The notes: generated by a model not told the origin, from the sequence alone. Positions 32,026 to 57,365 are shown, counted from the first letter of the stretch. The stretch is DNA of 64,000 nt from an uncultured delta proteobacterium (GCA_963802945.1 CAWDKY010000032.1:32001-96000), one strand, 5' to 3'. Program-made: numbers and translations.

Positions 32026-32087
32026 GAAGAATTTCTGTTTTGATGGAAAAACTTTAAACTTAGAAAAAGGCGGGGTCAAGGAGAAAA
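32026..32087 (-). promoter_or_regulatory. Repeated promoter cassette, copy A
   Basis: TTGACC(32079-74)-17bp-TAAAGT(32056-51) plus shared leader. Confidence 0.7.
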
Positions 32088-32107
32088 TAGGAAGATGAAT
32101 CCTAGAT

Positions 32108-32169
32108 TAAATCCTGATCAGAGGCATTCTCATTTTATTTTTGACCAAACCCTCAAGAGACGTTACTAT
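32108..32169 (+). promoter_or_regulatory. Divergent promoter block, copy 1
   Basis: taaatcctgatcagaggcat, then TTGACC-17bp-TACTAT; homologous to 35268-35334. Confidence 0.65.
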
Positions 32170-32466
32170 GGAAACCGCAATAGCAAACCATTTGTTCGCT
32201 CTGGTCGGGGATATGGGAGGTTATGCCACCAGTCAATCTAAGGTACCAACAAAACACAGGAATACCACGCCAGTAGTCGCTTCTGACGAGTTCAATACAC
32301 CAGCAACTAGGGTATGGTTCACTTCAGTTATCGCACGGGTTATACTATATGAGCCAATACTATCACGGCAGAGCCTTGGACATCATTGGAAGGGGTAATG
32401 GCCGACTCGCGTCGAAACTTATTTGCTAAAATAAGTATCTTTTGCCTGAAGCTTGATGTCATAACC

Positions 32467-32922
32467 CTACTTTTTCACCCGCCTGGTAGCTTTCTCTTCA
32501 AGAAGCCTTCTGATCTCCCGACGACCAAGCTTCCTCAAGGCTACCAGCACCCTTTTCTTCTCGTCCTTCGGCTTAAACTTCCCTATCTCCCACAGGTGCG
32601 CAGCCCCAACCGAAACGCCGGCCAGCACAGCTAACTCCTTCTGGGAAATGCCCAAGTGCCTACGGAGGCTTCGAATCAACCCAGGAGAAAGCCGAGAGGC
32701 TTTTACTTCTTCAGGTGATGCTTCCAATATTCTCTCTCTTATCCCCGATACTTTTTGCTGATGAGCTGTAGATCGCTCGAGCAGTAAAACAATCTTACGA
32801 AGTTGGGAGACCTTGTTTTTCAAAAGCCGAATATCTCGAGCCAGGGGAGCTGACGTCTTATGGATCTCCCTCTTGGTCAAACGTTGAATCTCTGATTTCA
32901 TAATGGATTCCATCTTGCCCAT
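32467..32922 (-). CDS. Coiled-coil plus XRE-type HTH protein
   Basis: IRSLRRHLGISQKELA..VS..WE.GK..P; GGAGG RBS. Confidence 0.8.
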   Translation of the reverse strand: MGKMESIMKSEIQRLTKREIHKTSAPLARDIRLLKNKVSQLRKIVLLLERSTAHQQKVSGIRERILEASPEEVKASRLSPGLIRSLRRHLGISQKELAVLAGVSVGAAHLWEIGKFKPKDEKKRVLVALRKLGRREIRRLLEEKATRRVKK

Positions 32923-33052
32923 GCATTCCTCCTCTCAGACAGTGCCCGGTTGGTTTACAAGGTTATTTTTGATAGAGATTATGATAGATTTTTAGTTATC
33001 AGGAAGTCCCTCTTGGGCTAATAAGCCCATATAAAAGAGATCTTATTTTCTT

Positions 33053-33113
33053 AAAGGAGTGGTTTTTCACTGGATAGAGTATAGGATAAGAAAAAAACCG
33101 GGTCAAGGAGAAA
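33053..33113 (-). promoter_or_regulatory. Repeated promoter cassette, copy B (diverged)
   Basis: TTGACC(33106-01)-17bp-TATACT(33083-78). Confidence 0.65.
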
Positions 33114-33479
33114 GACAGGGATAGAGGATATCTCGGTAGAAAATGAAAAAGCTTTCCCCAAAAATTAAAAATTACGAAAGAAACCCCCAAATTTCCCCAA
33201 ACATGGTCTCTCCTGACCGAACTCAGCGAGTACACCTCCTAATGGTTGACATTAGCATGTATTTGAATTAGCGATTACGGGTTGAAATAGACAATCCGAT
33301 TCATTGGACCTTGGAGCGGACTAAAGAATAAATTTCTCAAAGGGGTCTTCGATCATAGAGAAAATATCTCCACAGAATTTTGGGAATATCGAATACGAAA
33401 GGCCTATGAGGGATCTCGGGCAACTGATCTATCTATCAACGTATTGGAAAAAGAGTGGCCCCGGAAATTTCCAGCACCT

Positions 33480-34517
33480 TCATGCTTTCAGCTTTTCAAC
33501 GACATCTCGAAGCTTTTTAAAAAGTTCTCCCTCACGTTCCGCGCAGGTAAGCATTAACTCGCTGGCCTTATCAAAATTGTCTCCGGACTGGCCTCGCTGT
33601 TTGATGATGCGCACAGCGATGACGGCAAAATGACGCCATAAATCTCCAATAGAAGTCATTTCCTGCGATAATCGGGCAAGATCATCAGAGCCGCTAAAAA
33701 GATCAGAGGCTTCCTGAAGAAAGGCCGCATACATAAAGCGAAATCCGGCGCCGCCTGTTCCTATTTCTTCCTGCATACGAATGAGATGAGCCAGTTGCCG
33801 GCAGGCTTCATTAAAACCAAACTTGTCCGGACTATCTTTAATCTTTTTAGCCAAATAACGTATGCCCCGTATGCCAAAAAGGGGCAAAGGAATTCTCAGC
33901 ATCATGTTGCAGGTATCCTTCATACCCTTGATACAGGCTGTGCGCAGATCAGGATTAGGCCGGACGGTTTTCAGATAATACATTAAACCACGCGGCTCCA
34001 GCGGCCCGCGCGCGAAACGCGCCCTTTCCAGATCTTCCGCCAGACAATCTACCGGGTGATCCAATATCGGGTCGCTCAAGCGGAAACCGTTTTCAATCTC
34101 ATGCAGAACAATCAAGTTGTGTCCGTTAAAATTAAAACGAAAACGTTTTGGAAAATAGGAAAGCCAGTAGATGTTGGTCTTCACTGCGACAACCTGTCCG
34201 GTTCGAAGTACGCGACGCAGTTCATCCATGCCTTTTTGGGGATTGCGAAAACGCTTAAAGACGAATTTTCCCCCCAGTCTTGTGGTAGCTTTGCGGAAGA
34301 TGGCTCCCGCCTGCGTCCTGTAAGTGCTGAGTGGCATCCCGACCCATTTAATAAACGGCAGATGGCCGAAAAAAATGCCGCTCCCAATGCCGAAAGCCAT
34401 GGGTTCGGAAATATCCACGCCCTCATGACGAAACAGAGCGGATGTAACGCCGGATTCGCAATGGGCAGAAAAACGATGGATAAAAGGTTTGCCGTTGATT
34501 ATGATTTCTGTCGTCAT
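33480..34517 (-). CDS. BtrH N-terminal domain (papain-like) protein
   Basis: AHCESG, SEPMAFGIGSG, FNGHN, EEIGTGGAGFRFMYAAFL motifs. Confidence 0.82.
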   Translation of the reverse strand: MTTEIIINGKPFIHRFSAHCESGVTSALFRHEGVDISEPMAFGIGSGIFFGHLPFIKWVGMPLSTYRTQAGAIFRKATTRLGGKFVFKRFRNPQKGMDELRRVLRTGQVVAVKTNIYWLSYFPKRFRFNFNGHNLIVLHEIENGFRLSDPILDHPVDCLAEDLERARFARGPLEPRGLMYYLKTVRPNPDLRTACIKGMKDTCNMMLRIPLPLFGIRGIRYLAKKIKDSPDKFGFNEACRQLAHLIRMQEEIGTGGAGFRFMYAAFLQEASDLFSGSDDLARLSQEMTSIGDLWRHFAVIAVRIIKQRGQSGDNFDKASELMLTCAEREGELFKKLRDVVEKLKA

Positions 34518-34536
34518 GAATAAATGAGTACCTTCC

Positions 34537-34944
34537 TTATACTTGATCAGGCACGGTTTTCAACTCTTCCAGAGTAATGGCCAACACTTTTGCGTATTGG
34601 ACTAAAACCGATAATTTAAGTTTTCTAAAAATATGCGGGCGGAAATGCCTCTTGACTCTGAATTTGGCTATGCCCGCTGTCTTAGCCAGAATCTTCGGGT
34701 TCATCTGACGCCGTTCCATATGGTAAACCAGCGGGCTTTTCATGCCCGCGAGTACGGCTTTTCTGGTTTCCTCCAAATTGGCCGCCAATTCATCTACAGC
34801 GAGGCCGTTAATTTCTTCTTCTGCCTTCCAGCCGATACTGGGCACAATGACATATTTCCCCTCATCATTGACAGCGTAACAGGCACGTTTTTGGTCTTCA
34901 TAATATTGAGGAACGTCATCCTGTGGAACTTCATTTGTTTTCAT
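34537..34944 (-). CDS. Conserved hypothetical protein (EVPQD N-terminus, HTH-like C-terminus)
   Basis: MKTNEVPQD, YAVN, S.GW, SPL.Y.M, VKRH..P; recalled as a common neighbour of BtrH-N genes. Confidence 0.7.
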   Translation of the reverse strand: MKTNEVPQDDVPQYYEDQKRACYAVNDEGKYVIVPSIGWKAEEEINGLAVDELAANLEETRKAVLAGMKSPLVYHMERRQMNPKILAKTAGIAKFRVKRHFRPHIFRKLKLSVLVQYAKVLAITLEELKTVPDQV

Positions 34945-35074
34945 GGTCGGTTTCTTTCAATAATAGTGACCTTTTCCGTCTAAACGTATTTTTTTATACT
35001 AAAATAGATACAACGCAAAGCAAAATTCTGTTACAATAATTACTCATTATTTTATTAATAATCTCAATTAATTT

Positions 35075-35190
35075 ATAAGAAGTTGCTTTTTGATGGGAAG
35101 AGTATAAGGAAAGAAGAAGACACGGTCAAGGATAAAAATAGGGCGGAAGGCAAGGGGACAAGGGGGGACTTTAAAGAAAATGGGACTATA
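35075..35190 (-). promoter_or_regulatory. Repeated promoter cassette, copy C (long form)
   Basis: TTGACC(35129-24)-17bp-TATACT(35106-01); about 115 bp aligns with 50672-50786. Confidence 0.75.
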
Positions 35191-35267
35191 CAGGTCTGGA
35201 CTGTACAGATAAAAGTCGATAATAGGAAAAGGAAATCCGGCTCCCAATTTCTTACAGATTTTTCCCT

Positions 35268-35334
35268 TTAAATCCTGATCAGAGGCATCCATCCTTATTT
35301 TCCTTTTGACGAAAGCCCCGGGAGGCGTTAGTAT
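35268..35334 (+). promoter_or_regulatory. Divergent promoter block, copy 2 (upstream of parA-like gene)
   Basis: taaatcctgatcagaggcat, then TTGACG-17bp-TAGTAT. Confidence 0.65.
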
Positions 35335-35400
35335 AAAACAAATTCAAAGAACACCTGATCAAAATTCAAAAGGTTTGTTAGCTGTTAGCTGGAGACCAAC

Positions 35401-36153
35401 ATGAAACCCATCATTTTCTCCGTAATGAATCACAAGGGCGGTGTGGGCAAGACGACGACCGCAGTCAGTCTGGCCGCGGGGTGGGTGGAAAACGGTCGCC
35501 GGGTCCTATTGATCGATCATGATCCACAGGGCAGCGCCAGTCTGTCCCTGGGTATTGCAACCGACGGCCAGGACCTGATGAAGGCCCTGACCGCCTCAAC
35601 CGCGCTGCCGGTAGCGGAAACCGGACTTCCCGGTTTGTATCTGGTGCCTTCCGGGCAGGGACTGGTGGAGGCCCGCCAGCGTTTCAGCGGGGCCCTCGGG
35701 CTGGAACTACTGCGGAGATGCCTAGAGCGCACGCCCTGGGATTGGGACCGGGTAATCATCGACTGCCCACCCGGAGAGGAAATCCTGACCCTGGGGGCCC
35801 TGCGGACTTCCCGGTATGTCCTTATTCCCGTAGAAGTCCACTATCTGGGCCTGAATGGGATAAACCAGATCCATAAAACCATCTCCGCCGTCCAACGGGA
35901 TAACCCTCTCCTGGAAATCGGGGCGGTCATCCCCTGCCGGTCCCATCCTCGTAGAATAATCCACAGGGTAATCATGGAGAAATTGGAAACGCTTTTTCCA
36001 GGGAAGGTAGCTCCCGGGGTACGGGAATGCGTTTCCCTGGCGGAAGTCCCGGCCTCCGGGATGTCCATTTTTCAGTATGCCCCCTGGTCCAATGGGGCCG
36101 CCGATTACCTGGAAGTGATCCGCTGGCTGGAAGGCCGGTTGAAAGGCTCTTGA
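35401..36153 (+). CDS. ParA/Soj family ATPase (orphan)
   Basis: KGGVGKTT, DHDPQG and IIDCPP motifs. Confidence 0.9.
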   Translation: MKPIIFSVMNHKGGVGKTTTAVSLAAGWVENGRRVLLIDHDPQGSASLSLGIATDGQDLMKALTASTALPVAETGLPGLYLVPSGQGLVEARQRFSGALGLELLRRCLERTPWDWDRVIIDCPPGEEILTLGALRTSRYVLIPVEVHYLGLNGINQIHKTISAVQRDNPLLEIGAVIPCRSHPRRIIHRVIMEKLETLFPGKVAPGVRECVSLAEVPASGMSIFQYAPWSNGAADYLEVIRWLEGRLKGS

Positions 36154-37023
36154 CCAGCTTTTCCTCCCAGGTACCGGTAAGCAGAGGATGAGGGAAGGCT
36201 GGATCCGCCTGACCGCTATAGTTTTAAGAAAATACATGGACCAAAAAATTCAAAAGCACCTCCTCTTGGGTGTCAGTTCTCTACTTTATCCTTTTTATGC
36301 TTTTATTGATACAAGTTAGAATCAACGTCCTTTATTACGGGACTATGCGTGTCTAAACTTCAAAATAGAAGGAGATAAGAGGAACAGAAGAGGCAGACTT
36401 TCAAAATTTGGACGAACTACCCCCTCGGTGATTTTCTAATTTTCAACCAAAAAAATGATACCTACCTATCTTGATAGTTTTGAGCCAAAAAACGGCTCTT
36501 AAAAACGATCAAATCCGCACTTTCCCGGCAGGTATCCCATGGTCAGTTTTAAGGGTAGTTTTAGGAGGGTCAATTGCAACGTTGTGTTGGGGACTTCACC
36601 TACTACTACACAGAATCAAAGCGCTAATAATTTATCAATTACCAATGGAAATATGGATGAAATAGTTAGACTACCTACGGGTTTTGAACTTGAGCTGTCA
36701 TCACTCCTTTTTTAGCCAAAGCCGTCTCCTTCCTTTGGGCTAACTCAGAGCTTATCACATGTTCAGTCGGTCCAACGACCTGGGGTTCACCCCTCGGCTC
36801 TGCCGGATGTCAAGTGACTTTTTTAAACTCATATGTTCCAGAAAGATTAAAAAAATATATGTTCACTGTCATTCCACTAAGTTAAAAGGGTCGTTGGCAT
36901 TATCAAAATTTTTAAACTCGCAATTCACAACCGTAATGGTCATATCTGCATTATTACTTCTTTGTCCCTTGGCATCCACTACAAATCAAATTATGGGGTT
37001 CAAGGTTTGGCCTTTTGCGACCT

Positions 37024-37776
37024 TTAGGGGCGGTTGATCAGGTTGGCCAGGTACCCGGCCCCAAAGCCGTTGTCTATATTGACCACGGCCACGCCCGAGG
37101 CGCAGGAATTGAGCATCCCGAGCAGGGCGGCCAGGCCGTTGAAGCTGGCCCCGTAACCTATGCTGGTGGGAACGGCAATGACCGGACGTTCCACTAAGCC
37201 CCCCACTACGCTGGGCAGGGCCCCTTCCATCCCGGCCACCACAATCAAGACCGAAGCCGACAAGATCTTTTCCTGATTGGCCATCAGGCGGTGCAATCCG
37301 GAAATCCCTACGTCATATAGGTACTCCGTAGGATTGCCCATGATTTGGGCTGTAAGCATAGCTTCTTCGGCCACCGGCATATCGGATGTCCCGGCTGAAA
37401 TAACCAGGACCAGCCCACGGCCTGGCAATGTTTTAACCGGTTTGGAAAGACAGGTTAAGACCCTGGAAAGGGGATGATAGACAGCCTCGGGAAATCGCTT
37501 GCAAACTAGAGCGGCCTTTTGAGCATCCAGCCGGGTGACCAGGATGTTTTCCTTGTTTTTTTTCATCCGACCCATGATTTCTATGATCTGTTTGGCTGTC
37601 TTCCCTTCGCCGAAAATGACTTCCGGAAATCCCTGGCGCAAAGAACGATGGTGGTCGATTCGGGCAAAGTCAATATCTTCAAAAGGAAGGTATTTCATTT
37701 TTTTCACGGCCTGATCAACAGACACCTTTCCATTCTTGACCTGGTTTAAGAGTTCTTTTAAACGGTCCGGATTCAT
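37024..37776 (-). CDS. larB: Nickel pincer cofactor biosynthesis protein LarB
   Basis: RQGFPEVIFGEGK, AGTSD, AGMEGALPS, PTSIGYG, VNIDNGFGA motifs. Confidence 0.93.
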   Translation of the reverse strand: MNPDRLKELLNQVKNGKVSVDQAVKKMKYLPFEDIDFARIDHHRSLRQGFPEVIFGEGKTAKQIIEIMGRMKKNKENILVTRLDAQKAALVCKRFPEAVYHPLSRVLTCLSKPVKTLPGRGLVLVISAGTSDMPVAEEAMLTAQIMGNPTEYLYDVGISGLHRLMANQEKILSASVLIVVAGMEGALPSVVGGLVERPVIAVPTSIGYGASFNGLAALLGMLNSCASGVAVVNIDNGFGAGYLANLINRP

Positions 37777-37901
37777 TTTTTCTCCCTTTAAAATTCCCCA
37801 AGTTCGGGGCTTTCCGAATCATTTGGGAATTGGTTTGATTTTAAGTTCCTGTTCAGTTAGAATACATGGGTTCTCATATTCTGTCAAATGGTTCGGTTGG
37901 T

Positions 37902-40299: not shown

Positions 40300-40375
<76 letters not shown>

Positions 40376-40959: not shown

Positions 40960-42463
40960 ATGAACGTTGCCAGGAATTTAGAACGGTCGGCCCTCTTCTT
41001 TCCCGAGCACCCCGCCCTCAGCGATGGGGAACAGGAACTCACTTATCAAACCTTAAACACCTTGGCCAATCAGGTGGCCACCTCCTTGATTCAATTCGGG
41101 GTAAAACCGGGGGATTTTATAGGCCTTTGTGCGCCCAATAGCGCCGATTGGATTATTTTCTATTTCGGAGTTCTCAAAACCGGCGCAGTGGCCGTGACTT
41201 ATTCCTATCTTCTCCAGGAAAAGGAACTTAACCTTCTGGTTCATCACTCCAAACCCAAGATGATTTTTACAACCGACAGCCGAATCCCGGAAGTGGAGAA
41301 AATGAAGGCCTCGGGAGCTTCTGGAAAAAATCATCTGCCCTCATGGTGATGTGAATCTGACTCAATTATTGGATCGGGGTCGGGAAACTTTTCAAGCCAT
41401 CGATCGCGACCGAAGCGATCCCGCCGCTGTTTTATATACCGGAGGGACCACCGGGGATCCCAAAGGGGTCCTGCTGACGCATGAAAATATCAACGTCTCC
41501 AGCCATAATGTGGCCTTCTCGGAACGATCCAGTGAATTCGACCGGGCCCTTTGTTATCTCCCCTTCAATCATGTCTTTGGTCAAATGCACATCATGAATG
41601 CCACTGTTTTGAGCGCCGGATGTCTGGAAATTTTACCGGGTTTTGATTTGGATAAGGTCCTTAAGTTAATCTCCAGGGGAAAGATCACCAAGTTTTATGC
41701 AGTTCCTACAACCTATATCCGCCTGCTCACTGAGGAAAATCTCAAAGAAAAATTGGGTAAGATACGATATTGTTTTTCGGCCGCCGCCAGTCTGGCCGGG
41801 GAGATCGTCCGGCAATGGAAAGAACGTACCGGACTGACTATTTATGAAGCCTACGGTTTGACCGAATCCGCCTCGATGGTCACCTATAACCATTTTTGTC
41901 GTCATGTGGTCGGGTCGGTCGGGGAAGTGGCACCCGGTATCGAGGTGGAGATTCGAGATCTATCGGGTAACAAACTGGGAAAAAATCAAGAAGGTGAAAT
42001 TTGTATTCGAGGGCGGAACATCATGGCCGGCTACCTCAATAATCCCAAAGATACCCAAGCGGCTTTTTGGGAGAATGACTGGTTTAGATCCGGAGATATC
42101 GGTTATCTCGATGATCAGGGATATCTTTTCATTGTCGATCGCCTCAAAGATATGATCATCACCGGCGGGGAAAATGTTTATCCCAGGGAAGTCGAAGAGA
42201 TTATTTACACCCGAAGCGAAGTGCAGGAGTGTGCGGTTGTCGGTCTTCCTGACCGGGAGTGGGGTGAAAGGGTGACCGCTTTCATTATTCCGAAACCAGG
42301 ACGGGTGATCAGCCCTCAAGATTTGAAATCTTTCCTAAAGTCTTCTTTATCCTCTTTCAAGGTGCCTAAAGAGGTGGTGACGCTGGAGGAAATGCCCAAG
42401 AGTCCAGCCGGCAAAATCCTGAAACGAGAACTGAAAAAAAGTTATTTGGAGGGAAAGAGCTGA
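40960..42463 (+). CDS. Acyl-CoA ligase (AMP-binding); frameshift near 41315
   Basis: Two ORFs join into one ligase: YTGGTTGDPKG, YGLTE, SGDIG, GKILK. Confidence 0.88.
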
Positions 42464-43750: not shown

Positions 43751-44546
43751 ATGCTGCAAGTCAACAATATCGAAGTGGTCTATATGAATGTCATTCAGGT
43801 GCTGCGAGGCGTATCCCTGGAGGTGGGTGATGGAAAGATCGTTGCCCTGCTCGGGGCCAATGGCGCCGGCAAGACGACCACACTCAAGGCCATATCCGGA
43901 ATGCTGAAGACGGAAGAGGGAAAGGTAACCGATGGCAGCATTGATTTTGATGGAAAGAGGATTGACCAGTATGGTCCCGAGGCCATTGCCGCTTTGGGCA
44001 TCAGCCAGGCCATGGAAGGGCGAAGGGTTCTTGAGCACCTGAGTGTTGAGGAAAATTTACTGGTCGGCGCTTACTGCCGTAAAGACCGGGCCGGGGTCAA
44101 GAGGGACCTGGAAATGGTCTTTGACTACTTCCCCAGGATCAAAGACCTCCGCTACCGGATCAGCGGCTATCTGTCCGGTGGTGAACAGCAGATGCTGGTG
44201 ATCGGGCGGGCGCTCATGGCCCGTCCGAAGCTGATGCTTCTGGATGAACCTTCACTCGGTCTGGCCCCTTTGCTGGTGCAGGACATCTATGAAATCATCC
44301 AGAGAATCAGTGTCCGAGCAAAAAATGGCCATACTCCTTGTGGAGCAAAACGTCAGAGCTGCCCTGGGTATCGCTGATTATGGTTATGTGATGGAGAATG
44401 GCAGGGTGGTTCTAGGAGGTCCGGCTGAGAAGTTAAGAGATAATGAGGATGTTCGGGAATTTTATCTGGGATTATCGGCTGTCGGCTCCCGAAAGAGCTA
44501 TCGTGAAATCAAGCACTACCGGCGCAAGAAGAGGTGGTTGAGTTAG
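43751..44546 (+). CDS. Liv-type ABC ATPase (LivF-like); frameshift near 44312
   Basis: GANGAGKTT, LSGGEQQM, DEPSLGLAP; LLVEQN continues in a shifted frame. Confidence 0.9.
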
Positions 44547-44549
44547 AAA

Positions 44550-46513
44550 ATGAAGACAAAGGCCATGACAGACAGGGACGAAGGCAGAGATCTCATAAAG
44601 AAAAGGGCGATACCTGGCCCAAGATACTCAAGTATAACTTTGAAAAGTATGGCGATAATCGAAGAGCCATGCGCCATAAGCACTACGGCATCTGGCAGCC
44701 TTACTCCTGGAAGGACTACTATCTCAAGGTCAAATACCTGGCCCTTGGGTTGCTGTCCCTCGGCTTTGAACCCGGGGATAAGGTGCTTATTGTCGGGGAT
44801 AATGCCCCCGAGTGGTATTATGCCGAACTGGCTGCCCAGGCCAGTCATGGGGTTTCTGTGGGGGTGTGTCCGGATTTACTTCCTCGGGAGATAAAAATCA
44901 TTGCCGAAAATTCCGAAGCCAGATTTGCCATCGTTGAAGATCAGGAGCAGGTGGATAAGTTTCTCCAAATCAAAGCCGAGCTTCCCTTGCTCAAAAAGGT
45001 TATTTACTGGAGCTATAAGGGACTGGCCCACTATGATGACCCTATTTTGATGGGCTATAAACAGGTCCTGGAAAAAGGGGACAATATGAGGCGGAACACC
45101 TCGGGCTCTTTGAGCGCATAGTGGAAACCGGCAAGGCCGATGATATCTGCGCCATGGTTTACACTTCAGGGACCAGCGGAACCGCACCCAAGGGAGCTGT
45201 CCACACCTATAGGACGATGAGGGCGGGCGCCGATCATTATTTACATCTTGATCCCTGGTATGAAAACGACAATGTGGTCCCTTACCTGCCCCCGGCCTGG
45301 ATGACTGAGCAATGGGTTGGAATCGGTTGTCACCTGCTATCGGCTTGCATCCTGAACTTTGCTGAAGCGCCGGAGACCCAACAGCGGGATACCAGGGAAA
45401 CAGGACCAAGCATCGTATTCTACGATGCCCGGCTATGGGAGAGTCTGGCGGCCATGGTCCAGGCACGGATTCTTGGGGCTGATGCTATCCAAAAGCTGGC
45501 CTTCCGTCTGTTGATGCCGATCGGCTACAAGATGGCCGATCTGAGGTTTCAAAAGAAAAAACCGGACCTCTTCCAGAAAATACTCCACGGCTTGGCTGAT
45601 CTCGTCCTATTCAGACCTCTTAGAAACAGTCTTGGTCTGTCCAATGCCAGAATCTGTTATAGCACCGGGGCCGTGCTCAGTCCGGAGGCCTTCAGGTTCT
45701 ACCATGCCCTGAATCTTCCCCTCAAAAGCCTATACGGGACAACAGAGGGCGGAGCTCTCACCGGCGCCAGGGATGAGGACATCTGTACTGAGACTGTTGG
45801 GCCTGTCCCCAAGGGGACGGAGGTAAAAATAACCGATAATGGGGAACTGATTTATCGTCAGCCCGGCATTTTTGTCGGATATTATAAGGACCCGGAGAAG
45901 ACTGCCGAAGTGCTAAAAGACGGGTGGTTTTATAGTGGAGACAGCGGTTTCATCCGGGAGGATGGACACATTGTATTTTTGGACAGGGTCAGAGGACTTA
46001 ATTGAGCTGGAAAGTGGCGAAAAACTGGCCCCCCAATGGATTGAGAGCCGGCTGAAATTCAGTCCTTATATCAAGGAAGCCTGGGTTCTGGCCGGACCGG
46101 ACCAGGCCTACGCCTCGGCAATATTAATCATTAACTATGATACATGTCAGAAGGTGGGCCGGACAAAAGAGGGTGGCTTATACTACCTTCGCCGAGCTTT
46201 CCCAGAAGGCCGGAGGTTTACGAGTTGGTGAAGCAGGATATCGACAGAATAAACAGCACGCTTGCCCCCGGGTTGCAGGGTGAAGAAATATGTCAACCTG
46301 CACAAGGAATTCGATCCGGATGAGGGCGAGGTAACCAGGAACAGAAAGCTGAGGAGGACCTTTTTGGAAGAGCGTTATCGCGAGCTTATCGATGCGATCT
46401 ATGGGGATAAGACCGAGGTGTCGATAGAAGCCCGGGTCAGGTATCAGGATGGGCGGACGGGAACCATAAAGACGACTCTTAGCATCAAGTCTGTTGAAGG
46501 AGCCTTCGTATGA
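44550..46513 (+). CDS. Long-chain acyl-CoA synthetase within ABC operon; several frameshifts
   Basis: Consecutive ORF pieces: KHYGIWQ, YTSGTSG..PKG, YGTTE, SGDSG, SPYIKEA, GEVTRNRKLRR. Confidence 0.82.
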
Positions 46514-47400: not shown

Positions 47401-48459
47401 ATGGGTTTACGCTCCGGAACCTTTCAAGAAACCTACGCGCAGGATATGGCTGTCTTCCGCACCAAGGCTGCAATGGGGAATGCTCCTGGTCTTTCCTCAT
47501 CTTTCTTTTCACCTGCCCATTGTTATTTCAGTGACAGGATACTGACCATCATGACCATGATCGGTATTGCCATTATCAGTGTTCACGGGCTCAATATTCT
47601 GACCGGATACTGCGGCCAAATCTCCATGGGCCATGTGGGTTTTATGGCAGTCGGCGCCTATGTCTCGGCGATCTTAACCGCCAAGCTCGGCTGGTCATTC
47701 TGGGCGGCCTTGCCCTGTGCCGCCCTGGCCGCGGGAATGGCAGGTTTGATCTTCGGTCTGCCGTCCTTAAAGATCAAGGGTTCTACCTCATTATGGCCAC
47801 CATCGCCGCCCATTTTATTATTATCTGGCTGATCCTCCAGCTCCGAAGTATCACCGGCGGAGCTGACGGCATGGCTGTGCCCAAACCCCGGATAGGCAGT
47901 ATCGTGTTGACGTCCAAAGCCAGCTACTTCTACCTGGTTATGATAATGGCCTGCCTGGCCACGTTCTTGGCTGTAAACATGGTCAGGACCAGGGCAGGCA
48001 GGGCCTTCGTCGCCATCAGAGATAACGACCTGGCGGCTGAGGTCATGGGGATCAATCTGTGGAGTTATAAGCTGCAGGCATTCTTTATCGGCTGTGTTTA
48101 TGCCGGAGTGGCCGGGGCCTTGCTGGTTCACTACTATGGATTCGCCAGTGTCGACCAGTTTCCCTTCATGGATTCCGTCTGGTATATGGGCATGCTGATT
48201 GTCGGCGGAATGGGCAGCATCCCGGGGGCTATTCTCGGCGCCGTATCTCTCAAGCTGCTGGATGAGCTGGTCACCATTGTCGGCCCCATCTTATCGGCAG
48301 CCGTTGCTGCCCAGGCAGCCGCTTCATTGGCCCTCATCACCCGGGGATTAGTCATTATTCTCTTTCTTATTTTTGAACCCAGGGGACTCGCACACCGGTG
48401 GGAGACTTATCAAGGCCTATTTCAGATTGTGGCCTTTCTCACATGAAGAAACAGAGTGA
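47401..48459 (+). CDS. Liv-type ABC permease (LivM-like); several frameshifts
   Basis: GLNILTGYCGQISMGH, GRAFVAIRDN, EPRGL; YFRLWPFS end in a shifted frame. Confidence 0.85.
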
Positions 48460-49791: not shown

Positions 49792-49808
49792 CCCTAATCA
49801 CGATCATT

Positions 49809-50171: not shown

Positions 50172-50430
50172 TCATTTCTTTTGATTCGCTACGATATATT
50201 CAGCCATGGTTCTTATAGAGGTGAATATCTTCCGCCCTTCTCTTAGGTTTTCGATCTTAATACCGTAATTGTTTTCCATAAGAATGGCAAGCTCCATCGC
50301 ATCAATAGAATCAAGACCCAACCCGTTTCCGAAAAGAGGTGCTTCCGTTTCAATTTCTTCCGGTGTAAGGTCTAACAGGTTCAGCAGCGGTTATGATCTC
50401 TTCCTTCAGTTTGAGAATCAATTCCTCCAT
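50172..50430 (-). CDS. Acyl carrier protein (absent from ORF track; one extra base near 50385)
   Basis: MEELILKLKEEIITA/LNLLDLTPEEIETEAPLFGNGLGLDSIDAMELAILMENNYGIKI..TMAEYIVANQKK-stop. Confidence 0.88.
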
Positions 50431-50591
50431 GATTTTCATTTTCCTTTAAATAGTTTTTCCAAATTAAAAAGTAAATTTTAACACATTCTTTAAATTTTTT
50501 AAATCTTTTTATCCTGTCTTCCTGCTCAACCACGAAGGGAGAAAGGAGGCTATTCTACAGGAGCGAAGAGAAAAGAAATGGTTGAATGAAT

Positions 50592-50786
50592 GATAAGAAC
50601 TTGCTTTTTATGGGAGGAAGTATAAGTTGAAAAAAAAGTCGAAGTCAAGGAGAAAATCAGGTCAAAATTTGATAAGAAGTTGCTTTTTGATGGGTAAAGT
50701 ATAAGACAAAGAAAAGTTTAGATCAAGAAGAAAAATAGGGCGGAAGGTAAGATGACAAAGGGGGACGTTTGAAGAAAAAAGGGACT
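50592..50786 (-). promoter_or_regulatory. Repeated promoter cassette, tandem copies D1 and D2
   Basis: 79-bp period; TTGACT-18bp-TATACT (50648-50619) and TTGATC-17bp-TATACT (50726-50698). Confidence 0.75.
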
Positions 50787-50837
50787 TTGCCAGTTGGGAT
50801 TATACCAAGAGTGAGAAATAAGGGGGAAAGAAGGCCT

Positions 50838-51948
50838 GGCAGATTCTACTTGCAAGTGCGCCACATTAGATAACCGCAGGACATGATGGGATTTTCTGGT
50901 AGTGTGTGAAGCACGACCAACACGCACCCCAGAAAGGGACCCATCATGCCCTATACCCATCTTACAGAAAAAGATCGATATGTCATCAGCCATTTGAAGG
51001 TGGCCGGTTTTTCGCTACGGGAGATTGGACGTCGTCTCGGGCGAGACCATGCCACCATTAGTCGGGAGATCAAACGTAACGGCCCAACCTATCCTGAAGG
51101 AATATACTGGTACGATTTCACACAACCCCGGGCCATTGAGCGGCGTCATAAAGCCCGGCATTATCGCCGGCATGATCACCGTACGCTGGTTGAATATGTT
51201 GAAGCTAAAATCCGTATCGAATGGCCTCCGGAAGTTATTGCTGCTCACCTAAAGCTTGATCACCCAAACGATAAAACCATGCGTATCTGCCAGGAAACTA
51301 TTTATCGGTGGATATTTCAAGATGCTCAACAAGGTGGCGATCTCTACTGCTATCAGAGACGCCGTCACAAAAAACGCCGCAAACAAAGACGCTATGGCTC
51401 GGGAAGACGTTTTATCCCTGGGCGTGTTTCCATTGATCAACGTCCATCCCTGGTTGATTTACGCCAACGGTTTGGGGACTGGGAAGGGGACACGCTGGAA
51501 GGTGGAAAAGGAAAAGGGGGCCTGGCCACTCATGTCGAGCGTAAAGGCCGTTATCTATTGGCAGCCAAGCTCTCGGACAAGACCTCCAACACCATGACTC
51601 AGCAAAGCATTAAATCCTTTCGGAAAGCTCCCCGGACCCTACGCCATACCCTCACCGTTGATAATGGTAAAGAATTTTCTAATTTCAAAGAGCTCGAAAA
51701 TAAAACCGGGTTAAAAGTCTATTTCGCAGACCCCTATGCAGCTTGGCAGCGGGGAATCAATGAAAATACAAATGGTCTGTTAAGACAATATTTCCCAAAA
51801 GGAACTGATTTCCAAAAGATATCGGAAAAAGAGATTGCTTTTGTCGTTAAAAAACTAAATAATCGCCCCAGAAAATGTCTCCACTACCAGACCCCTCATG
51901 CGGTCTTCTGTCAGGCTCTTAGTGGTGCACTTTGAAGTAGAATCTGCC
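50838..51948 (+). mobile_element. IS30-family insertion sequence (1111 bp)
   Basis: 27-bp terminal inverted repeats GGCAGATTCTACTT.. with 3 mismatches; transposase stop lies inside the right repeat. Confidence 0.93.
50946..51935 (+). CDS. IS30-family DDE transposase
   Basis: [12 protein letters not shown]; [39 protein letters not shown] motifs. Confidence 0.96.
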
Positions 51949-52045
51949 GTTTCACCTAAGGGGAACAACCCGAAGTATAAAAATCACCCTGCACCTTTTG
52001 AAAAAGGGAGGACCAGGGGAAATTTTAATAAGGTGTAGGACATTC

Positions 52046-52953
52046 ATGGATCAAATTTTAAAAGGACTTTATCGCTTGGGAGTACGTGAGTTTCCTTCTT
52101 ATCTCGTAGTGGGGAGCAGTCTAATTATTCAGGTTGATGCTGGAACCACATTTACGGGGCCGCAGGTCCTCCAAGATATTCAAGAAGCGCTGGGGAAAGG
52201 AAGGGGACCGGACTTTCTTTTCCACACCCATTCCCACTTCGACCATGTAGGCAGCACCCCTTTTCTCAAGCGGCACTTTCCGGAGATAAAAATAGGCGGC
52301 AGTGAAACGTTCGCCAGGCGGCTCTCTCAGCCCAAGGCCGGGAAAGCCATAGCTGATCTCAACCGTGCGCTTGTTCAGAAAAATAATATGGACCAGGGCT
52401 TTATTCCCGGGGATTTTGACTACAGCCTCTTGACGGTTGAGCGGATTCTTAAAAACGGGGATTTGGTCGATCTGGGTGGAGGGGCATCGCTTGAGGTCCT
52501 CGCCACTCCCGGCCACACCAACGACAGCCTGAGCTTCTTTCTCCCCCATCTGGAGGTCATGCTGCCGGGCGATGCGCTCGGGATCCTTCCGGGAGATGAT
52601 GTTTGGGTGGCGCCCCAGTTTCTATCTAGCTACGAGGATTATCTCGACTCCATCGATCGGGTTAGAAAAAAAGCGCCGAAAACCCTTCTCTTGGGCCATC
52701 ACTCCGTGGTACGCCAAGCGGAATCGACCGATTTTTTAAGGCCGCTGTTTCCGACTGCCAGGCCTTCCGGGAGATGATCGAACAGTATCTGAACGAATTC
52801 CAGATGAAGGAAGAAATGGTCGTCCAGCGTATCCAGGCCGCCGAGTATCAGACGCTCCGCAAAAGCAAACAGCCCGAGGCGGCTTTTCTTTTAAACCTTG
52901 CCGCCCAGGTCCGCTTGATCGCGAGAGATATGAAAGGGGATCGGATGGGATAA
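52046..52953 (+). CDS. MBL-fold metallo-hydrolase; frameshift near 52730
   Basis: HTHSHFDH, TPGHT, GD, GH motifs; C-terminus continues in a shifted frame to TAA at 52953. Confidence 0.85.
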
Positions 52954-53003
52954 TATTATTTTCAGGCAAAATGCCTGACCTATTTAATTTTGAGCTTTGA
53001 GTT

Positions 53004-53028
53004 TCGTTCCCACCCATAGCGTGGGAAC
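53004..53028. repeat. REP-like hairpin
   Basis: gttcccac-ccatagc-gtgggaac between convergent genes. Confidence 0.5.
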
Positions 53029-53076
53029 AATAAATAGGTTTGTGGTTTACTTCAGCTTTCAGTTTTCAGCTATTTT

Positions 53077-54597
53077 TTATTTTCCGAGCTTATCCTTAAG
53101 CTCCCTTTTCAGTATTTTACCGGCACTATTGCGGGGGAATTCTTTTACAAAAACGACCTTTTTGGGAATCTTAAAGTAGGCAATTTTTTCTTGGAGGACT
53201 TCGAGCAGTACTTCTTCGGTCATCGTAGCGCCCTTGTTCAGCAAAACAAAGGCCGCCACCACTTCGCCCCGCTTGGAATCGGGCATCCCGACCGCTGCGG
53301 CCTCCGACACTTGAGGAATCGATTCGATGGCGCGCTCCACTTCGGCGGCATAGATATTCTCTCCCGAACTGATAATCATATCGATCTTTCGGCCGACAAT
53401 ATAAAGAAACCCCTCACGATCCTGTTTCCCTAGATCGCCAGTGTAAAACCATCCATCGCGGAAAGACGCCTGCGTCTCTTGCTCCTTATTCCAGTATCTT
53501 AAAAAAACGGTGGGGCCCTTTACCACAACCTCACCAACTTCGCCCGGCGGCACATCCTGGCCGCTTTCATCCACGATTCGCAAGTGGGTGTGGAATACCT
53601 CTTTGCCGACCGACCCGGCTTTGCGGATAGTGTCTTCGAGATCCAGGGAGGTCAGTCGCAAAGTTTCGGTCATGGCATACCCCTGCGTGAACCGGACTCC
53701 CTTTTCCTCCTGATACTTGCGGATCAGGTCAACGGACATGGAAGCCCCGCCGGCAATGAAGAAATAGACGTGGGAAAAATCAGCTCTTTCCCAGGCGTCG
53801 GTTTTGGCCATCATTTCAAACATCACCGGTACCGCAAACATGTAGTTGATTTTTTCAGCGCAGATAAGCTCAACAACTTCCGAAGGGTTGTCGAAACTTT
53901 TAAGAACCAGCGAGCCTCCGGCATAAATAGCCGGCGTGGCCGAGGCGGCCAGGGCCCCGATGTGGAAAAGGGGAGCTACTACAAGGGATTTGCAGTTGGA
54001 GCTGATGCCGTAGCCGATCAGGGAATGGATGGCCCCAAAAAGAAAGTTTTCATGCGAAAGCACGGCCCCTTTGGGATCGCCGGTCGTCCCGGATGTATAC
54101 ATGATGACTAAGGGATCTTTCAGGGTCAATTCCTCCGCGGGAATCGGTTCTTCTTCCGGAAATGAGGCTGTAAAATTCGCAAGAGAAGCATCGCTGGAAA
54201 ATCGGTCGCCGCCATGCTGGAGATAATGCTCAACCGCTGGGGATGCAGCTTTAAGCCCCTCGGCCTTGTCTACAAGTTCAGCAGAATAGATCAGGGCCCG
54301 GGGAGCGGCATCTTTAATGATATAACCCATTTCCGGCAGCGCCAGTTTTAAATTAATGGGGACGATCATCGCACCGGTTTTGGCGCAGGCAAAAAAGACT
54401 TCCAGAAATTCGCTGGAGTTGACCATCAGGGTTGCCACCCGTTCACCCTTTTTGACGTCGAGCGCTGCCAGCGCATGGGCGGTTTGGTTCACCCGCGCAT
54501 TGAACTGGCGGTTGGTGAATGCCCGGTCTTCCTGTTTTAGAAAAGGCCGCTGCGGATAAGTCAGCGCGCGCTTGTAAATCCACTCCCCAATGTTCAT
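53077..54597 (-). CDS. Acyl/aryl-CoA ligase (MenE/FadD-like)
   Basis: YTSGTTGDPKG, GYAMTE, TGDLG, GKILK; AAGGAG RBS. Confidence 0.92.
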   Translation of the reverse strand: MNIGEWIYKRALTYPQRPFLKQEDRAFTNRQFNARVNQTAHALAALDVKKGERVATLMVNSSEFLEVFFACAKTGAMIVPINLKLALPEMGYIIKDAAPRALIYSAELVDKAEGLKAASPAVEHYLQHGGDRFSSDASLANFTASFPEEEPIPAEELTLKDPLVIMYTSGTTGDPKGAVLSHENFLFGAIHSLIGYGISSNCKSLVVAPLFHIGALAASATPAIYAGGSLVLKSFDNPSEVVELICAEKINYMFAVPVMFEMMAKTDAWERADFSHVYFFIAGGASMSVDLIRKYQEEKGVRFTQGYAMTETLRLTSLDLEDTIRKAGSVGKEVFHTHLRIVDESGQDVPPGEVGEVVVKGPTVFLRYWNKEQETQASFRDGWFYTGDLGKQDREGFLYIVGRKIDMIISSGENIYAAEVERAIESIPQVSEAAAVGMPDSKRGEVVAAFVLLNKGATMTEEVLLEVLQEKIAYFKIPKKVVFVKEFPRNSAGKILKRELKDKLGK

Positions 54598-54610
54598 CGA
54601 GATTACTCCT

Positions 54611-54768
54611 TAACAGGTTGCTGAAAAAGGCCCATCTACTGTGTTGCCCTCATCCCTCGTCATTGCGGCGTACCTCTGTGTACGCCTCACAGTCTCGGAA
54701 TTTCGGCGCCTTGTATCTGGACCTTTTCGAGCAACCTTTAAAATAAATTGGTAATACGCAAATTGTTA
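54611..54768. mobile_element. Palindromic miniature element, family A, copy 3
   Basis: AGGTTGCTGAAAAAGG / CCTTTTCGAGCAACCT inverted arms; fills the whole intergenic gap. Confidence 0.75.
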
Positions 54769-55989
54769 AGTAATATTTTTCAGCACCAGCGAAACAAAGG
54801 TCCCCCCGGATGAAAACCCGTTTATCAGACCGAAATTAATTGGAAGGTCTATCTTTTTTTCCATGACAAACCGCAGCGGACGGATCGGATTTTTAAGACC
54901 GACCGTGGGGGGAATGCTTCCCGCCTTTATCGATAAGGCCATGGCCGCCGTCCTTATCCCCCCGGATGAGAAGCTCTCACCCACAGCCCCTTTAATGGCG
55001 CTGATATAGGGTCGATCAGTAGCGCTTCCAAATACGATAGACAGCGCCTCGGCCTCAAGGGCGTCCAGTCTGCTGCCGCCGCTGGCGGCGGCCGAGACAT
55101 AATCGATTGCGCCGGGGGCGATCCCGGCCGAATTCAGCGCCCGGGTGATCGCCAGGACCGACCCCCGGGGATCTGAAGGCCAGTCGGTGGGCGGGGCCGG
55201 CGCTGAGCTCAGGCCCCATCCGACAATTTCACAATAGGGTCTGTGCCCGCGGGCCTCGGCCTGCGAGAAGGTCTCAAGGCATACCATCCCCGCCCCCTCG
55301 CCGACTACCGGTCCGTTTCGACGGATGTCAAAGGGACGTGCTCCCTCCGGCCCGCCGCCTAACGGGGAAAGGGCCTTAAAATGGGTCAGCACTCTAAAAA
55401 AGAATTCTGAAATAATATCTACGCCACCGGCAAACATAAAATCGGCCCGGCCTTGTTTAATCTCAGAAGCGGCGTAGACGATGGCCGTCTCGGCCGAGGC
55501 CTCACGGTGATTGATGGTTGAGTTGATCCCCCTGAAGCCAAGCTCGATGGAAGTATGGCCGGCCGGCGCGTTCATCACCGTATTCGGCACCTGAAAGGGA
55601 CCGACCATCCCCGGGCCTTGGCTGAGAAGCACTCCGGCAAACTGGGCGGCAACGTCGGTGCTGCCGACGGCGGTCCCCAGGATAATCCCCGTCCGATCCC
55701 GGTTGGAGACGTCTATGCTGACCCCGGCATCCTCCAGGGCCATCCTGGCTGAAGCGCAGGCCAGAGAGGATGTCCGGTCCATCTTGCGAAGGTTTTTCAC
55801 GGAGATGAACGCTCTGGGGCTAAAGTCCGTTACAGCCGCTCCCAGTTTGGAAGCAAAATGGGACGTATCAAAATGCGTAATCGGGGAGATGCCGCAGTCT
55901 CCCCGGAAAAGTTTCTGCAAGAAATCATCCTTTCCAACCCCTAAGGGAGTGACCAGGCCGACCCCGGATATGACCACACGGTTACTCAT
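54766..55989 (-). CDS. Ketosynthase-like chain-length factor (catalytic triad absent)
   Basis: KS fold but REAS in place of TACS, SAAASG in place of NAHGT, GES in place of GHT; start overlaps the KS stop. Confidence 0.85.
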   Translation of the reverse strand: MSNRVVISGVGLVTPLGVGKDDFLQKLFRGDCGISPITHFDTSHFASKLGAAVTDFSPRAFISVKNLRKMDRTSSLACASARMALEDAGVSIDVSNRDRTGIILGTAVGSTDVAAQFAGVLLSQGPGMVGPFQVPNTVMNAPAGHTSIELGFRGINSTINHREASAETAIVYAASEIKQGRADFMFAGGVDIISEFFFRVLTHFKALSPLGGGPEGARPFDIRRNGPVVGEGAGMVCLETFSQAEARGHRPYCEIVGWGLSSAPAPPTDWPSDPRGSVLAITRALNSAGIAPGAIDYVSAAASGGSRLDALEAEALSIVFGSATDRPYISAIKGAVGESFSSGGIRTAAMALSIKAGSIPPTVGLKNPIRPLRFVMEKKIDLPINFGLINGFSSGGTFVSLVLKNIT

Positions 55990-57229
55990 GGGCAATCCCT
56001 CTCGGGGTATAACTTCCCAAAACGATGGCGGTGTTGTTTCCGCCGAAGGCAAAAGAATTGGAAAGAACGATATTCACCTCCGCCTCCCGGCAGCCTTCGG
56101 TAACATAGTCCAGATCACATTCGGGGTCGGGTTCGGTCAGGTGAATCGTCGGCGGAATAAAATGCTGAAAAATAGCCAGAACGCAAGCCACTGCTTCGAT
56201 GGCGCCGGCCGCGCCCAAGGTGTGGCCCGTCATGGATTTTGTGGAACTCACCGGGAGGTGATAGGCCCGTTGGCCGAAAACCGCCTTGATCGCCTTGGTT
56301 TCTACAGGATCGTTGGCCGGGGTGGCCGTGCCATGGGCGTTGATATAGTCCACCTGCTCAGGGGCTAGGCCGCTGTCCTGCAAGGCGGCTTCTATACAGC
56401 GCACCGCCCCCGAAGCCTCAGGGTCCGGAGCGGTCATATGGTAGCTGTCGCAACTCACCCCGTATCCGAGGACCTCCCCGTAGATGCGCGCTCCCCGCTT
56501 TTGCGCCTGGCTCAAGGCCTCCAGGATCATGATGCCGGCCCCTTCGCCGAGAGAAAGCCCCTGCCGGTTTTTGTCGAAAGGCTTGCAATATTCCGGGTCC
56601 ACCGCCTGCAGCGCGTTAAAAGCGCCGTAAGTAATCCGGCAAAGGGGTTCGGTGCCTCCGGCGATAACCACGGTTGCCGTCCCCTCCCGGATCAGATCCC
56701 TGGCATACCCGATGGCCGTGGCGCCGGATGAACAGGCGGTCATGAATGTGGTTTTGGGTCCCATCAGCCCTAAGTTTGAGGCGATCTGGTCCGCGGAAGA
56801 GGCGCAGCAAAAGGCCGAAAAAGGCGAATAGCGGACGCCTTTACCGCTGCCCTGGAGATATTGGCGATAGGCCTCCTCGCCTTCCAGCATGCCGCCGGCC
56901 CCGCCGCCGATAACAACGCCGGTATCGGCCTGCAGGACTTCCGGAAAAGGAAAAAGTCCCGCATCGCTCAAGGCCTCCAGCGCAGCCGCCATGGCCATGC
57001 GGTCCGAACGAGACATCCGCTTTAATGAGAATTCCGGCGGGATCATCTCGCGTGGGGCAAAATTTTTCACTTCCCCGCCGGTATGGGTTCTGAAGTCGGT
57101 CGTATCAAAGACCGTGACCGGTCCGATGCCGCATACCCCTTGCCTTAGAGCTGCGCTGAATTTAGACGCACTCCCGGCAATGGCATTGATGGTTCCCAGT
57201 CCGGTGATGACGACTCTTTCTTTTTCCAT
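55982..57229 (-). CDS. Beta-ketoacyl-ACP synthase (FabF-like, triad intact)
   Basis: TACSSG, NAHGTAT, GHTLGAAG, SNSFAFGGNN motifs. Confidence 0.93.
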   Translation of the reverse strand: MEKERVVITGLGTINAIAGSASKFSAALRQGVCGIGPVTVFDTTDFRTHTGGEVKNFAPREMIPPEFSLKRMSRSDRMAMAAALEALSDAGLFPFPEVLQADTGVVIGGGAGGMLEGEEAYRQYLQGSGKGVRYSPFSAFCCASSADQIASNLGLMGPKTTFMTACSSGATAIGYARDLIREGTATVVIAGGTEPLCRITYGAFNALQAVDPEYCKPFDKNRQGLSLGEGAGIMILEALSQAQKRGARIYGEVLGYGVSCDSYHMTAPDPEASGAVRCIEAALQDSGLAPEQVDYINAHGTATPANDPVETKAIKAVFGQRAYHLPVSSTKSMTGHTLGAAGAIEAVACVLAIFQHFIPPTIHLTEPDPECDLDYVTEGCREAEVNIVLSNSFAFGGNNTAIVLGSYTPRGIAHE

Positions 57230-57304
57230 AAGAACTTATTAGTTCACAGAAAGCTGTAATAATAGGCAGACAGATTGAATGTTTTTTATTTGATATTTTT
57301 TAGC

Positions 57305-57365
57305 TAGGAACTTGCTTTTTGAGAGGAGACTATAAACCAAGGGAAAAACGGGGTCAAGGAGAAAA
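57305..57365 (-). promoter_or_regulatory. Repeated promoter cassette, copy E
   Basis: TTGACC(57357-52)-17bp-TATAGT(57334-29) plus leader tcaaaaagcaagttcct. Confidence 0.72.

Follow-up and report, generated by a model that had tools for sequence, protein, structure and literature searches.

Promoter-like cassettes in the window and the genes they face

The window analysed here, a stretch of 64,000 nucleotides from an uncultured delta proteobacterium (GCA_963802945.1 CAWDKY010000032.1:32001-96000), holds a type II ketosynthase-type gene cluster and six short cassettes that look like sigma70 promoters, each joined to different genes. These cassettes are very probably the right (oriIS-side) ends of an insertion sequence (IS) of about 1.68 kb that belongs to the IS91 family of rolling-circle elements with a Y2 HUH transposase. 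All six were found at the positions reported in the initial annotation, a set of remarks on this DNA that preceded the present analysis, and all lie on the minus strand, where they are alignable over about 75 nt. Each consists, in order, of a T-rich stretch, TTGAC or TTGAT, a T-rich spacer, a TATACT-like hexamer and about 30 conserved bases ending CTTATCAAA, after which unrelated DNA begins.

Copy A (32012-32092; profile E-value 2e-13), copy B (33041-33127; 5e-14), copy D1 (50590-50666; 5e-9) and copy E (57292-57376; 4e-13) are minimal right ends of the element. Copy C (35062-35279, with the profile match at 35062-35188; 1e-27) is the entire 3' non-coding region of the IS (IS coordinates 1473-1679), and copy D2 (50666-50845, with the profile match at 50666-50781; 8e-20) comprises the right end and most of the IS 3' spacer (IS coordinates 1511-1681). 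These E-values were obtained with a profile made mainly from other copies. The terminus of D2 lies directly against the truncated 5' edge of D1, and the terminal part of copy B is the most diverged among the six. C and D2 had previously been aligned with each other over about 115 bp; the extended homology is real, but that length was too short, as 207 nt of C and 178 nt of D2 match the 3' non-coding region of the IS.

The boxes read TTGACC-17-TAAAGT in copy A (-35 box at 32079-32074 and -10 box at 32056-32051), TTGACC-17-TATACT in copy B (33106-33101 and 33083-33078) and in copy C (35129-35124 and 35106-35101), TTGACT-18-TATACT in D1 (50648-50643 and 50624-50619), TTGATC-17-TATACT in D2 (50726-50721 and 50703-50698) and TTGACC-17-TATAGT in copy E (57357-57352 and 57334-57329). 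A consensus scan called all six, at 9-10 of the 12 positions, and bore out the boxes that the initial annotation had described, including one 18-bp spacer with an A run; this is the spacer of D1, whose minus strand has a run of T that reads as A on the plus strand. The sharp stop of homology downstream of the -10 box was likewise confirmed, the edge being measured at about 30 nt after the box. The significance of the six units comes from the profile and not from the 15-mer pattern, which on its own gave seven matches (with three or fewer mismatches) against 4.45 expected, a number that 18 of 100 shuffles also reached and that is not significant. A promoter reading of the plus strand was rejected, the sole hexamer pair there having a 14-nt spacer.

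Every unit in the window lies 5' of a minus-strand gene and is aimed at that gene, and the gene assignments made earlier proved correct. Copy A ends within about 12 nt of the ribosome site and ATG of a FAD-dependent oxidoreductase gene (30472-32010, minus), which is followed by a second FAD oxidoreductase gene (29036-30409) and then by genes for a hydrolase and an MFS transporter. Copy B precedes the gene of an HTH_3/MqsA-like protein of 151 aa (32467-32922, minus), whose start is about 120 nt after the cassette. Downstream of copy C are a gene for a 135-aa protein without a family match (34537-34944, minus) and one for a BtrH_N/DUF4872 protein (33480-34517, minus). D1 and D2 together face an acyl carrier protein gene (50172-50439, minus) that is spread over three frames, with at least two frameshifts that result from assembly indels or decay. 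Copy E stands before a minus-strand operon (53077-57229) that encodes a ketosynthase (55982-57229), a second ketosynthase-like protein (54766-56052) and an AMP-binding ligase (53077-54597).

The IS91-family element that carries the cassette

The cassette is physically part of an IS91-family element. In 36 long copies, the DNA upstream of the promoter is the C-terminal part of a transposase gene on the same strand, and a search of the genome that contains the window with Pfam Y2_Tnp found one open gene of 444 aa, on contig C25, directly upstream of a cassette. The 444-aa protein scored 78.6 bits with Y2_Tnp (cut-off 20.9), 71.7 bits with Zn_Tnp_IS91 (cut-off 26.3) and 174.1 bits with the NCBIfam model of the IS91 family transposase (cut-off 125), whereas it reached only 126.9 bits with the NCBIfam model of ISCR clade Ia, for which the cut-off is 925; the transposase thus lies outside the ISCR clade. 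In this intact copy, the cassette starts about 105 nt past the stop codon of the transposase gene, on the same strand. A second intact copy, in genome G010, is 85% identical to it over 1546 nt and has the cassette at the equal position.

From the two intact copies, the element can be described as a left end TTTGAWAC, about 130 nt, the 444-aa gene and about 215 nt of non-coding DNA ending CTTATCAAA, about 1.68 kb in all, with the -35 box about 60 nt and the predicted transcription start about 22 nt from the terminus. The two ends share just a 7-nt imperfect match (left TTTGAWAC, right CTTATCAAA in reverse), and no inverted repeats of 16 nt or more were found at the intact-copy locus. By eye, the flanks of the two intact copies show no short target duplication, one of the copies lying inside direct repeats of 207 bp. 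The bases that follow the terminus in 57 terminus-aligned copies are A (38/57), A or T, and A (36/57), and then random; DNA folds of either strand gave no hairpin or leader structure at the cassettes.

Matches to the transposase at E<=1e-40 occur at 22 places across the family. At all seven loci where the match reaches residue 424 or beyond (in three genomes of the genus), the cassette lies 3' of the transposase, co-oriented and about 100-125 nt on. Among 250 further genomes sampled from the phylum, of which 244 do not belong to the family, three, all from other families, contain a near full-length relative of the transposase with 65-66% identity. The first of these outgroup elements was seen by eye to end with TTGACA, 17 bp, TATACT and the identical terminal motif; in the second, also judged by eye, the -35 box and the terminal motif are retained and the -10 box is poorer; the third runs off its contig. 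These elements are outside the profile's reach. Because they are kept in the outgroup elements, the promoter and the terminal motif belong to the element clade and not to the host cluster. Just beyond the terminus of both outgroup elements (L147 on its reverse strand, L149), the last few bases of the element are iterated in short tandem repeats over 60-90 nt, TATCAA-like in one and TATCACC-like in the other, as if initiation or termination had stuttered.

Public data contain 2084 relatives of the transposase at E<=1e-20. Those with names come from metagenome-assembled genomes (MAGs) of Deltaproteobacteria, Thermodesulfobacteriota, Syntrophales or Smithellaceae and are called only 'transposase', and among these public relatives no catalogue name for the IS was found. 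The initial annotation had described the units as either a promoter module that is portable or the terminus of some element not yet recognised. The latter proved correct, the end being that of an IS91-family element, and it explains the former. The outcome that the initial annotation itself had named as refuting its reading, namely that the matches are simply the termini of a catalogued IS, applies in substance, except that no catalogue name was found for this IS.

Nearly all copies are solo right ends of 85-215 nt, from which the transposase and the left end have been lost. A single-sequence search of the genome with the whole element gave 93 matches, of which 27 reach the right end, with starts anywhere from 2 to 1579; 14 keep transposase coding sequence. 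Left ends are rare in this genome (one full and two partial), against at least 133 right ends. The excess of right ends and the ragged upstream truncation would fit rolling-circle, one-ended events.

Twenty transposase relics in the genome of the window (G000) stop near IS coordinate 1137-1165, for example at window positions 32121-32248 and on contig C34 at 27476-27706. Seven of these have a cassette within 75 nt downstream, and the relics may descend from an internally deleted derivative that has propagated, or else mark the point where a variable linker begins that is beyond the reach of the search. The intact C25 copy, together with a downstream gene of 159 aa, is flanked by the 207-bp direct repeats mentioned above, which are 98% identical (L122, 145-351 and 2667-2873). 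These repeats duplicate the 5' part of a flavoprotein gene, an arrangement that does not look like the simple insertion of an IS, but as if a circle had been integrated through homologous recombination or a duplication junction had formed.

Other elements and genes in the window

Further traces of the IS lie on the minus strand of the window. One IS91-family transposase relic (32121-32248; IS coordinates 1019-1147) is directly upstream of copy A and co-oriented with it, another, from the N-terminal part (33333-33481; IS coordinates 416-546), lies between copy B and the BtrH-like gene, and a fragment of the IS 3' spacer without the promoter cassette is found at 36338-36443 (IS coordinates 1470-1573). 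An IS30-family transposase gene (50946-51935, plus; 293.8 bits with NCBIfam against a cut-off of 80; Pfam HTH_38 and rve) looks intact and diverges from D2 at about 100 nt from its upstream edge; it belongs to an element distinct from the owner of the cassette. With this gene and the two relics, the earlier statement that the window has no recombinase has to be withdrawn.

Several genes of the window are split (40960-42460, 44534-46002, 47401-48443 and 50172-50439, namely two AMP-binding ligases, a branched-chain permease and the acyl carrier protein), and the open reading frames (ORFs) downstream of cassettes elsewhere are also often truncated; assembly indel errors or widespread gene decay would be the cause. 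A tRNA gene (40300-40372, plus; Rfam 73 bits) and a small HNH endonuclease gene (59494-59844, minus) lie between or beside parts of the cluster. This tRNA was the sole Rfam hit at the gathering threshold between 30000 and 58500, and no known RNA family was found at the cassettes.

A genome-wide family of right ends

A profile of the six copies found 109 places at E<1e-3 in the same genome, and a second profile, made from those 109, found 133 copies at E<1e-3 (123 at <1e-5 and 86 at <1e-10). Five pairs are in duplicated contexts (redundant contigs or an inverted duplication), which leaves about 128 distinct copies. Near-identical stretches on C64/C16, C72/C29 and C67/C27 and the inverted duplication on C62 fit a contamination of 6.7% or a strain mixture, and such stretches slightly inflate the copy counts. 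A special tie of the unit to the ketosynthase cluster is not supported, since the 133 copies are spread over the genome before very diverse genes. The common control of acquired genes that the initial annotation suggested is not supported either.

Across the 133 copies, the downstream edge is sharp and the upstream edge graded: 56 copies start just upstream of the -35 region, 41 start somewhat further upstream and 36 extend past the profile. Matches to copy C within the genome are 82-89% identical over 72-100 nt. Nearby copies are barely more alike (66.5% versus 62.9% identity), a difference too weak to argue for local gene conversion.

The alignment of the 133 copies gives a 17-bp spacer in 107 and one of 16-18 bp in 128. 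As -35 box, 56 copies have TTGACC, 30 have TTGATC and 15 have TTGCCC; as -10 box, 84 have TATACT, 17 have TATATT and 10 have TATAAT. At least 9 of the 12 consensus positions are kept in 117 copies. Since the mean pairwise identity of the core is just 63%, the geometry of the promoter has been held despite considerable drift. The proposal of the initial annotation that the boxes and the spacer length are maintained is therefore sustained, and no part of the cassette is better preserved than the hexamers, minimal solo copies included.

A copy of 98 nt was matched in all 12 genomes sampled from the genus and in none of eight from other families of the phylum. Of the 20 other genomes in the family, 18 have cassette matches at E<=1e-6, and all four genera are represented; family, order and class are the same 21 genomes in this set. 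Co-oriented arrays are common, and on contig C30 (272976-289133) seven cassettes lie within about 17 kb, each before one to seven genes. The genes of the C30 array encode radical SAM, DAPG-hydrolase-like and metallo-beta-lactamase fold proteins, nitroreductases and MarC, and its copies share a variant with a TTGCCC -35 box and a distinct upstream module.

Position relative to genes

On a crude ORF map, 106 of the 133 copies are intergenic with a co-oriented next ORF, ten are inside crude ORFs and six are at contig edges. In tandem gaps, 57 copies point with the gene direction and seven point opposite (binomial p = 8e-11). Divergent gaps hold 47 copies and convergent gaps six, the background lengths of these gaps being 186 and 143 kb. 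As the contrast between divergent and convergent gaps is independent of the orientation of the element, replication-strand bias alone is no explanation for it. A Pfam family (E<=1e-4) was assigned to 72 of 86 downstream ORFs, and the families are very diverse: enoyl-CoA hydratases, aldehyde:ferredoxin oxidoreductases, HpaB-type enzymes, short-chain dehydrogenases, AMP ligases, radical SAM enzymes, nitroreductases, Cu/Zn superoxide dismutase, Rrf2 regulators and others. Because the copies lie 5' of genes and are aimed at them, the right ends are probably promoters of the adjacent genes, comparable to POUT of the rolling-circle element ISCR1 (described below).

Turnover between related genomes

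An ortholog of the ketosynthase that is 90-94% identical is present in six other genomes of the genus, which makes seven with G000. The cassette stands before it in four of the seven (G000 included) and is absent in three, and among the four carriers the junction of cassette and ketosynthase gene is at three different points. In one genome, the cassette lies upstream of a native-looking promoter region that is also found in a cassette-free genome. The DNA upstream of the ketosynthase operon is different in all seven genomes (L093-L099) and contains a tRNA gene in one of them (L098, from G011); the operon seems to move between contexts. An amidohydrolase gene has the cassette at the equal junction in G000 and G005, and lacks it in G008. 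Between G000 and G005, whose proteins are 96-98% identical, synteny is lost at the upstream edge of the cassette at two loci.

Searched for in five relatives, four genes with a cassette in front turned up in 2, 0, 1 and 1 of them (4 of 20 gene-genome pairs), whereas four neighbouring control genes without a cassette turned up in 5, 1, 5 and 4 (15 of 20). This suggests, in a very small sample of four genes against four, that genes with a cassette are biased to the accessory genome. A search for related loci with the FAD oxidoreductase gave only four, and the closest of them (77% identity, labelled as a Syntrophomonadaceae MAG) has no cassette within 3 kb.

Proposed function and alternative explanations

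It is quite likely that these IS91-family right ends carry an outward sigma70-type promoter which drives the neighbouring genes, including units of the ketosynthase-type cluster. RNA polymerase would start at the right ends and transcribe the adjacent gene, in the way that the POUT promoters of ISCR1 do. Rolling-circle copying that was one-ended or stopped too early, or a deletion at a later time, would account for the ragged upstream edge, and selection would retain the part of the right end by which a useful gene is driven. The type II ketosynthase-type cluster would then take the promoters of all its five transcription units from IS right ends, so that the whole cluster would carry one borrowed (predicted) promoter.

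Some observations weigh against this proposal, and those that concern the function of the boxes lead to its main competitor. The hexamers are conserved in intact elements too, where they could serve the origin, or a promoter that acts across the circle junction into the transposase gene. The cassettes might accordingly be inert transposon debris, the boxes being parts of oriIS that are read by the transposase and the gene-facing position resulting from insertion or tolerance. The conservation of the boxes and the terminal motif in the intact and outgroup elements argues for such a role in the element itself. Target choice is known for IS91-type elements (the part of PMC13181058 drawn on here), insertions within genes or at their 3' ends could be purged, and a promoter role for the neighbours is read in this genome from sequence and position. 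Purging, however, accounts for the absence from coding DNA but not for 47 divergent against six convergent copies, or for 57 against seven in tandem gaps. Nor would debris readily explain why 117 of the 133 copies keep at least 9 of the 12 consensus positions at a spacing of 16-18 bp, and a sigma70 promoter so near to consensus would probably be active regardless of where it came from. Moreover, solo copies keep the hexamers better than the terminal motif: hexamer identity is 0.90 and 0.93 in minimal solos versus 0.85 and 0.90 in IS-attached copies, whereas from IS-attached copies to minimal solos the identity falls from 0.74 to 0.64 in the spacer, from 0.81 to 0.73 in the upstream T-rich stretch and from 0.67 to 0.60 in the terminal 23 nt, although the conservation of the hexamers in solo copies may partly stem from the detection of short copies by a profile. 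Considering both sides, we regard inert debris as an unlikely explanation.

The remaining difficulties concern the data and the assignment to the IS91 family. The position test is based on a crude ORF map, and in the assembly contamination amounts to 6.7%, some contigs are redundant and many genes are split. Among the loci compared, none was a clean empty site that kept the two flanks. Upstream flanks differ even in close relatives, and therefore the comparison does not demonstrate transposition as against recombination between copies. As to the ends themselves, GTTC or CTTG next to the terminus is absent in the 57 terminus-aligned copies, and no subterminal palindromes were found, the DNA folds of three right ends on both strands being no better than those of shuffled sequences (z from -0.35 to +0.97).

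More doubtful than inert debris is a stronger form of the promoter proposal, in which a domestication on the scale of the genome would have made IS91 right ends the standard promoters of the accessory genome throughout this class of uncultured anaerobes. Arrays would have been built by serial one-ended capture, as in ISCR elements, and the outcome could be a transposon-derived regulon. The ketosynthase cluster of the window and the seven-copy array on C30 would be examples of such arrays, in the order 'end, gene, end, gene'. The terminal motif would lie over the start site and in the first 25 nt of each transcript, and a surviving transposase or a host factor could bind it, which would join more than 100 operons.

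A regulon of a more ordinary kind, in which a transcription factor or an RNA-binding factor recognises the 25-30 nt after the -10 box as an operator or leader and co-regulates the cluster with about 100 operons, would attribute the similarity of the copies to selection and not to mobility. The conserved stretch does span the position where repressors usually bind, the six copies in the window all precede genes of one biosynthetic theme, and the total conservation is far beyond the needs of RNA polymerase. Yet this stretch is the terminus of the IS, contiguous with transposase DNA in 14 copies and placed after the transposase 3' end at all seven informative loci, and it is kept in elements from other families of the phylum. 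In addition, the downstream genes have no common functional theme genome-wide, the presence of the cassette varies between orthologous loci, and neither an Rfam family nor a structure was found. We therefore consider a regulon of this kind very improbable, although a secondary co-regulation by way of the common sequence is possible. Least probable of all is an integron-type platform (Pc and attI) or another site-specific recombination site with its crossover point at the sharp 3' edge, for in spite of that sharp boundary with unrelated genes beyond it, and of co-oriented arrays such as the seven copies in 17 kb on C30, the boundary has no GTT-type core (A, A or T, A and then random bases), the upstream DNA is the 3' end of an IS91-type transposase gene and not an integrase gene, and hairpin-forming repeats are missing at the cassettes.

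If the right ends are promoters, the approximately 128 ends, with their strong bias to a gene-facing position, suggest that a sizeable share of the accessory operons may owe their promoter to one mobile element. The compact, near-consensus promoter may also be useful for gene expression from such organisms. For annotation and motif searches in these lineages, this family should be masked first, because the cassette mimics the signature of a regulon or a new portable promoter.

Comparison with known systems

Outward promoters on mobile DNA are a known means of activating adjacent genes. Short transposase-less intergenic repeats that deliver promoters are found among Correia-type elements, and the right ends described here resemble them in this respect. 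Correia-type elements have two inverted-repeat ends, make target duplications and move as whole units, whereas the stumps of this genome have one defined end and a ragged other edge. Correia elements are also named as promoter-bearing miniature elements in a survey of putative mobile promoters (PMPs), that is, of highly similar upstream regions before non-homologous genes in one genome (Nijveen, Matus-Garcia and van Passel 2012, PMC3575422). In that survey, 210 PMPs were known insertion sequences, and most PMP families were pairs (PMC3575422). The present copies, which are 80-90% identical over 60-100 nt and stand before unrelated Pfam families, come under the definition of at least 80% identity over at least 50 nt before non-paralogous genes. 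They differ from most PMP families in having about 128 members, and they can be traced to one particular end of one particular element.

Within the IS91 family, as described in the part of PMC13181058 used here, IS91, IS801 and IS1294 share with the present element the zinc-binding and Y2 domains and unlike ends without long inverted repeats. Members of that family make no target-site duplication; at the flanks of the two intact copies, one of them between the 207-bp direct repeats, none was seen by eye. The large excess of right ends over left ends fits an essential oriIS, a dispensable terIS and one-ended transposition, as in the IS91 family. On the other hand, GTTC or CTTG at the terminus, subterminal palindromes and an orf121-like gene, which the same part of PMC13181058 gives for the family, were not found in this element. 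That part of the article describes no consensus outward promoter for IS91 itself.

The closest parallel is ISCR1, for which the following details come from the portion of Lallement et al. 2018 (PMC6218425) considered here. A 232-bp region on its oriIS side contains two outward promoters, POUT (PCR1-1 and PCR1-2), which raise downstream expression 13- to 15-fold and read TAAACG-N17-TAAGAT and TTCGGA-N18-TTTATA. The DNA past the oriIS end of ISCR1 is variable and mostly co-oriented with the promoters, and the next gene is at 0-1211 bp (PMC6218425). Both systems are thus IS91-related rolling-circle elements with an outward promoter in the non-coding interval from transposase stop codon to oriIS end (232 bp for ISCR1 and about 215 nt here), and in both the distance to the gene varies, here from a few nt to several hundred. 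They differ in that the present element has one promoter, far closer to consensus (TTGACC, 17 bp, TATACT), and a transposase that is of the IS91 family and outside the ISCR clade. For ISCR1 the function of the promoters has been shown, whereas here it is predicted from the boxes and their placement.

In the literature searched, a limited library that turned up the work on ISCR1 and general reviews, IS91-type solo ends are not described as a genome-wide promoter family. The present case would extend the idea of POUT from clinical Gammaproteobacteria to environmental anaerobes. What is notable in these IS91-family solo ends with an ISCR1-like outward promoter is mainly their scale: ISCR1, according to the same portion of the literature, is found in clinical Gammaproteobacteria in whole copies that adjoin class 1 integrons, whereas here more than 100 transposase-less stumps per genome stand before genes of ordinary metabolism in an uncultured anaerobe.

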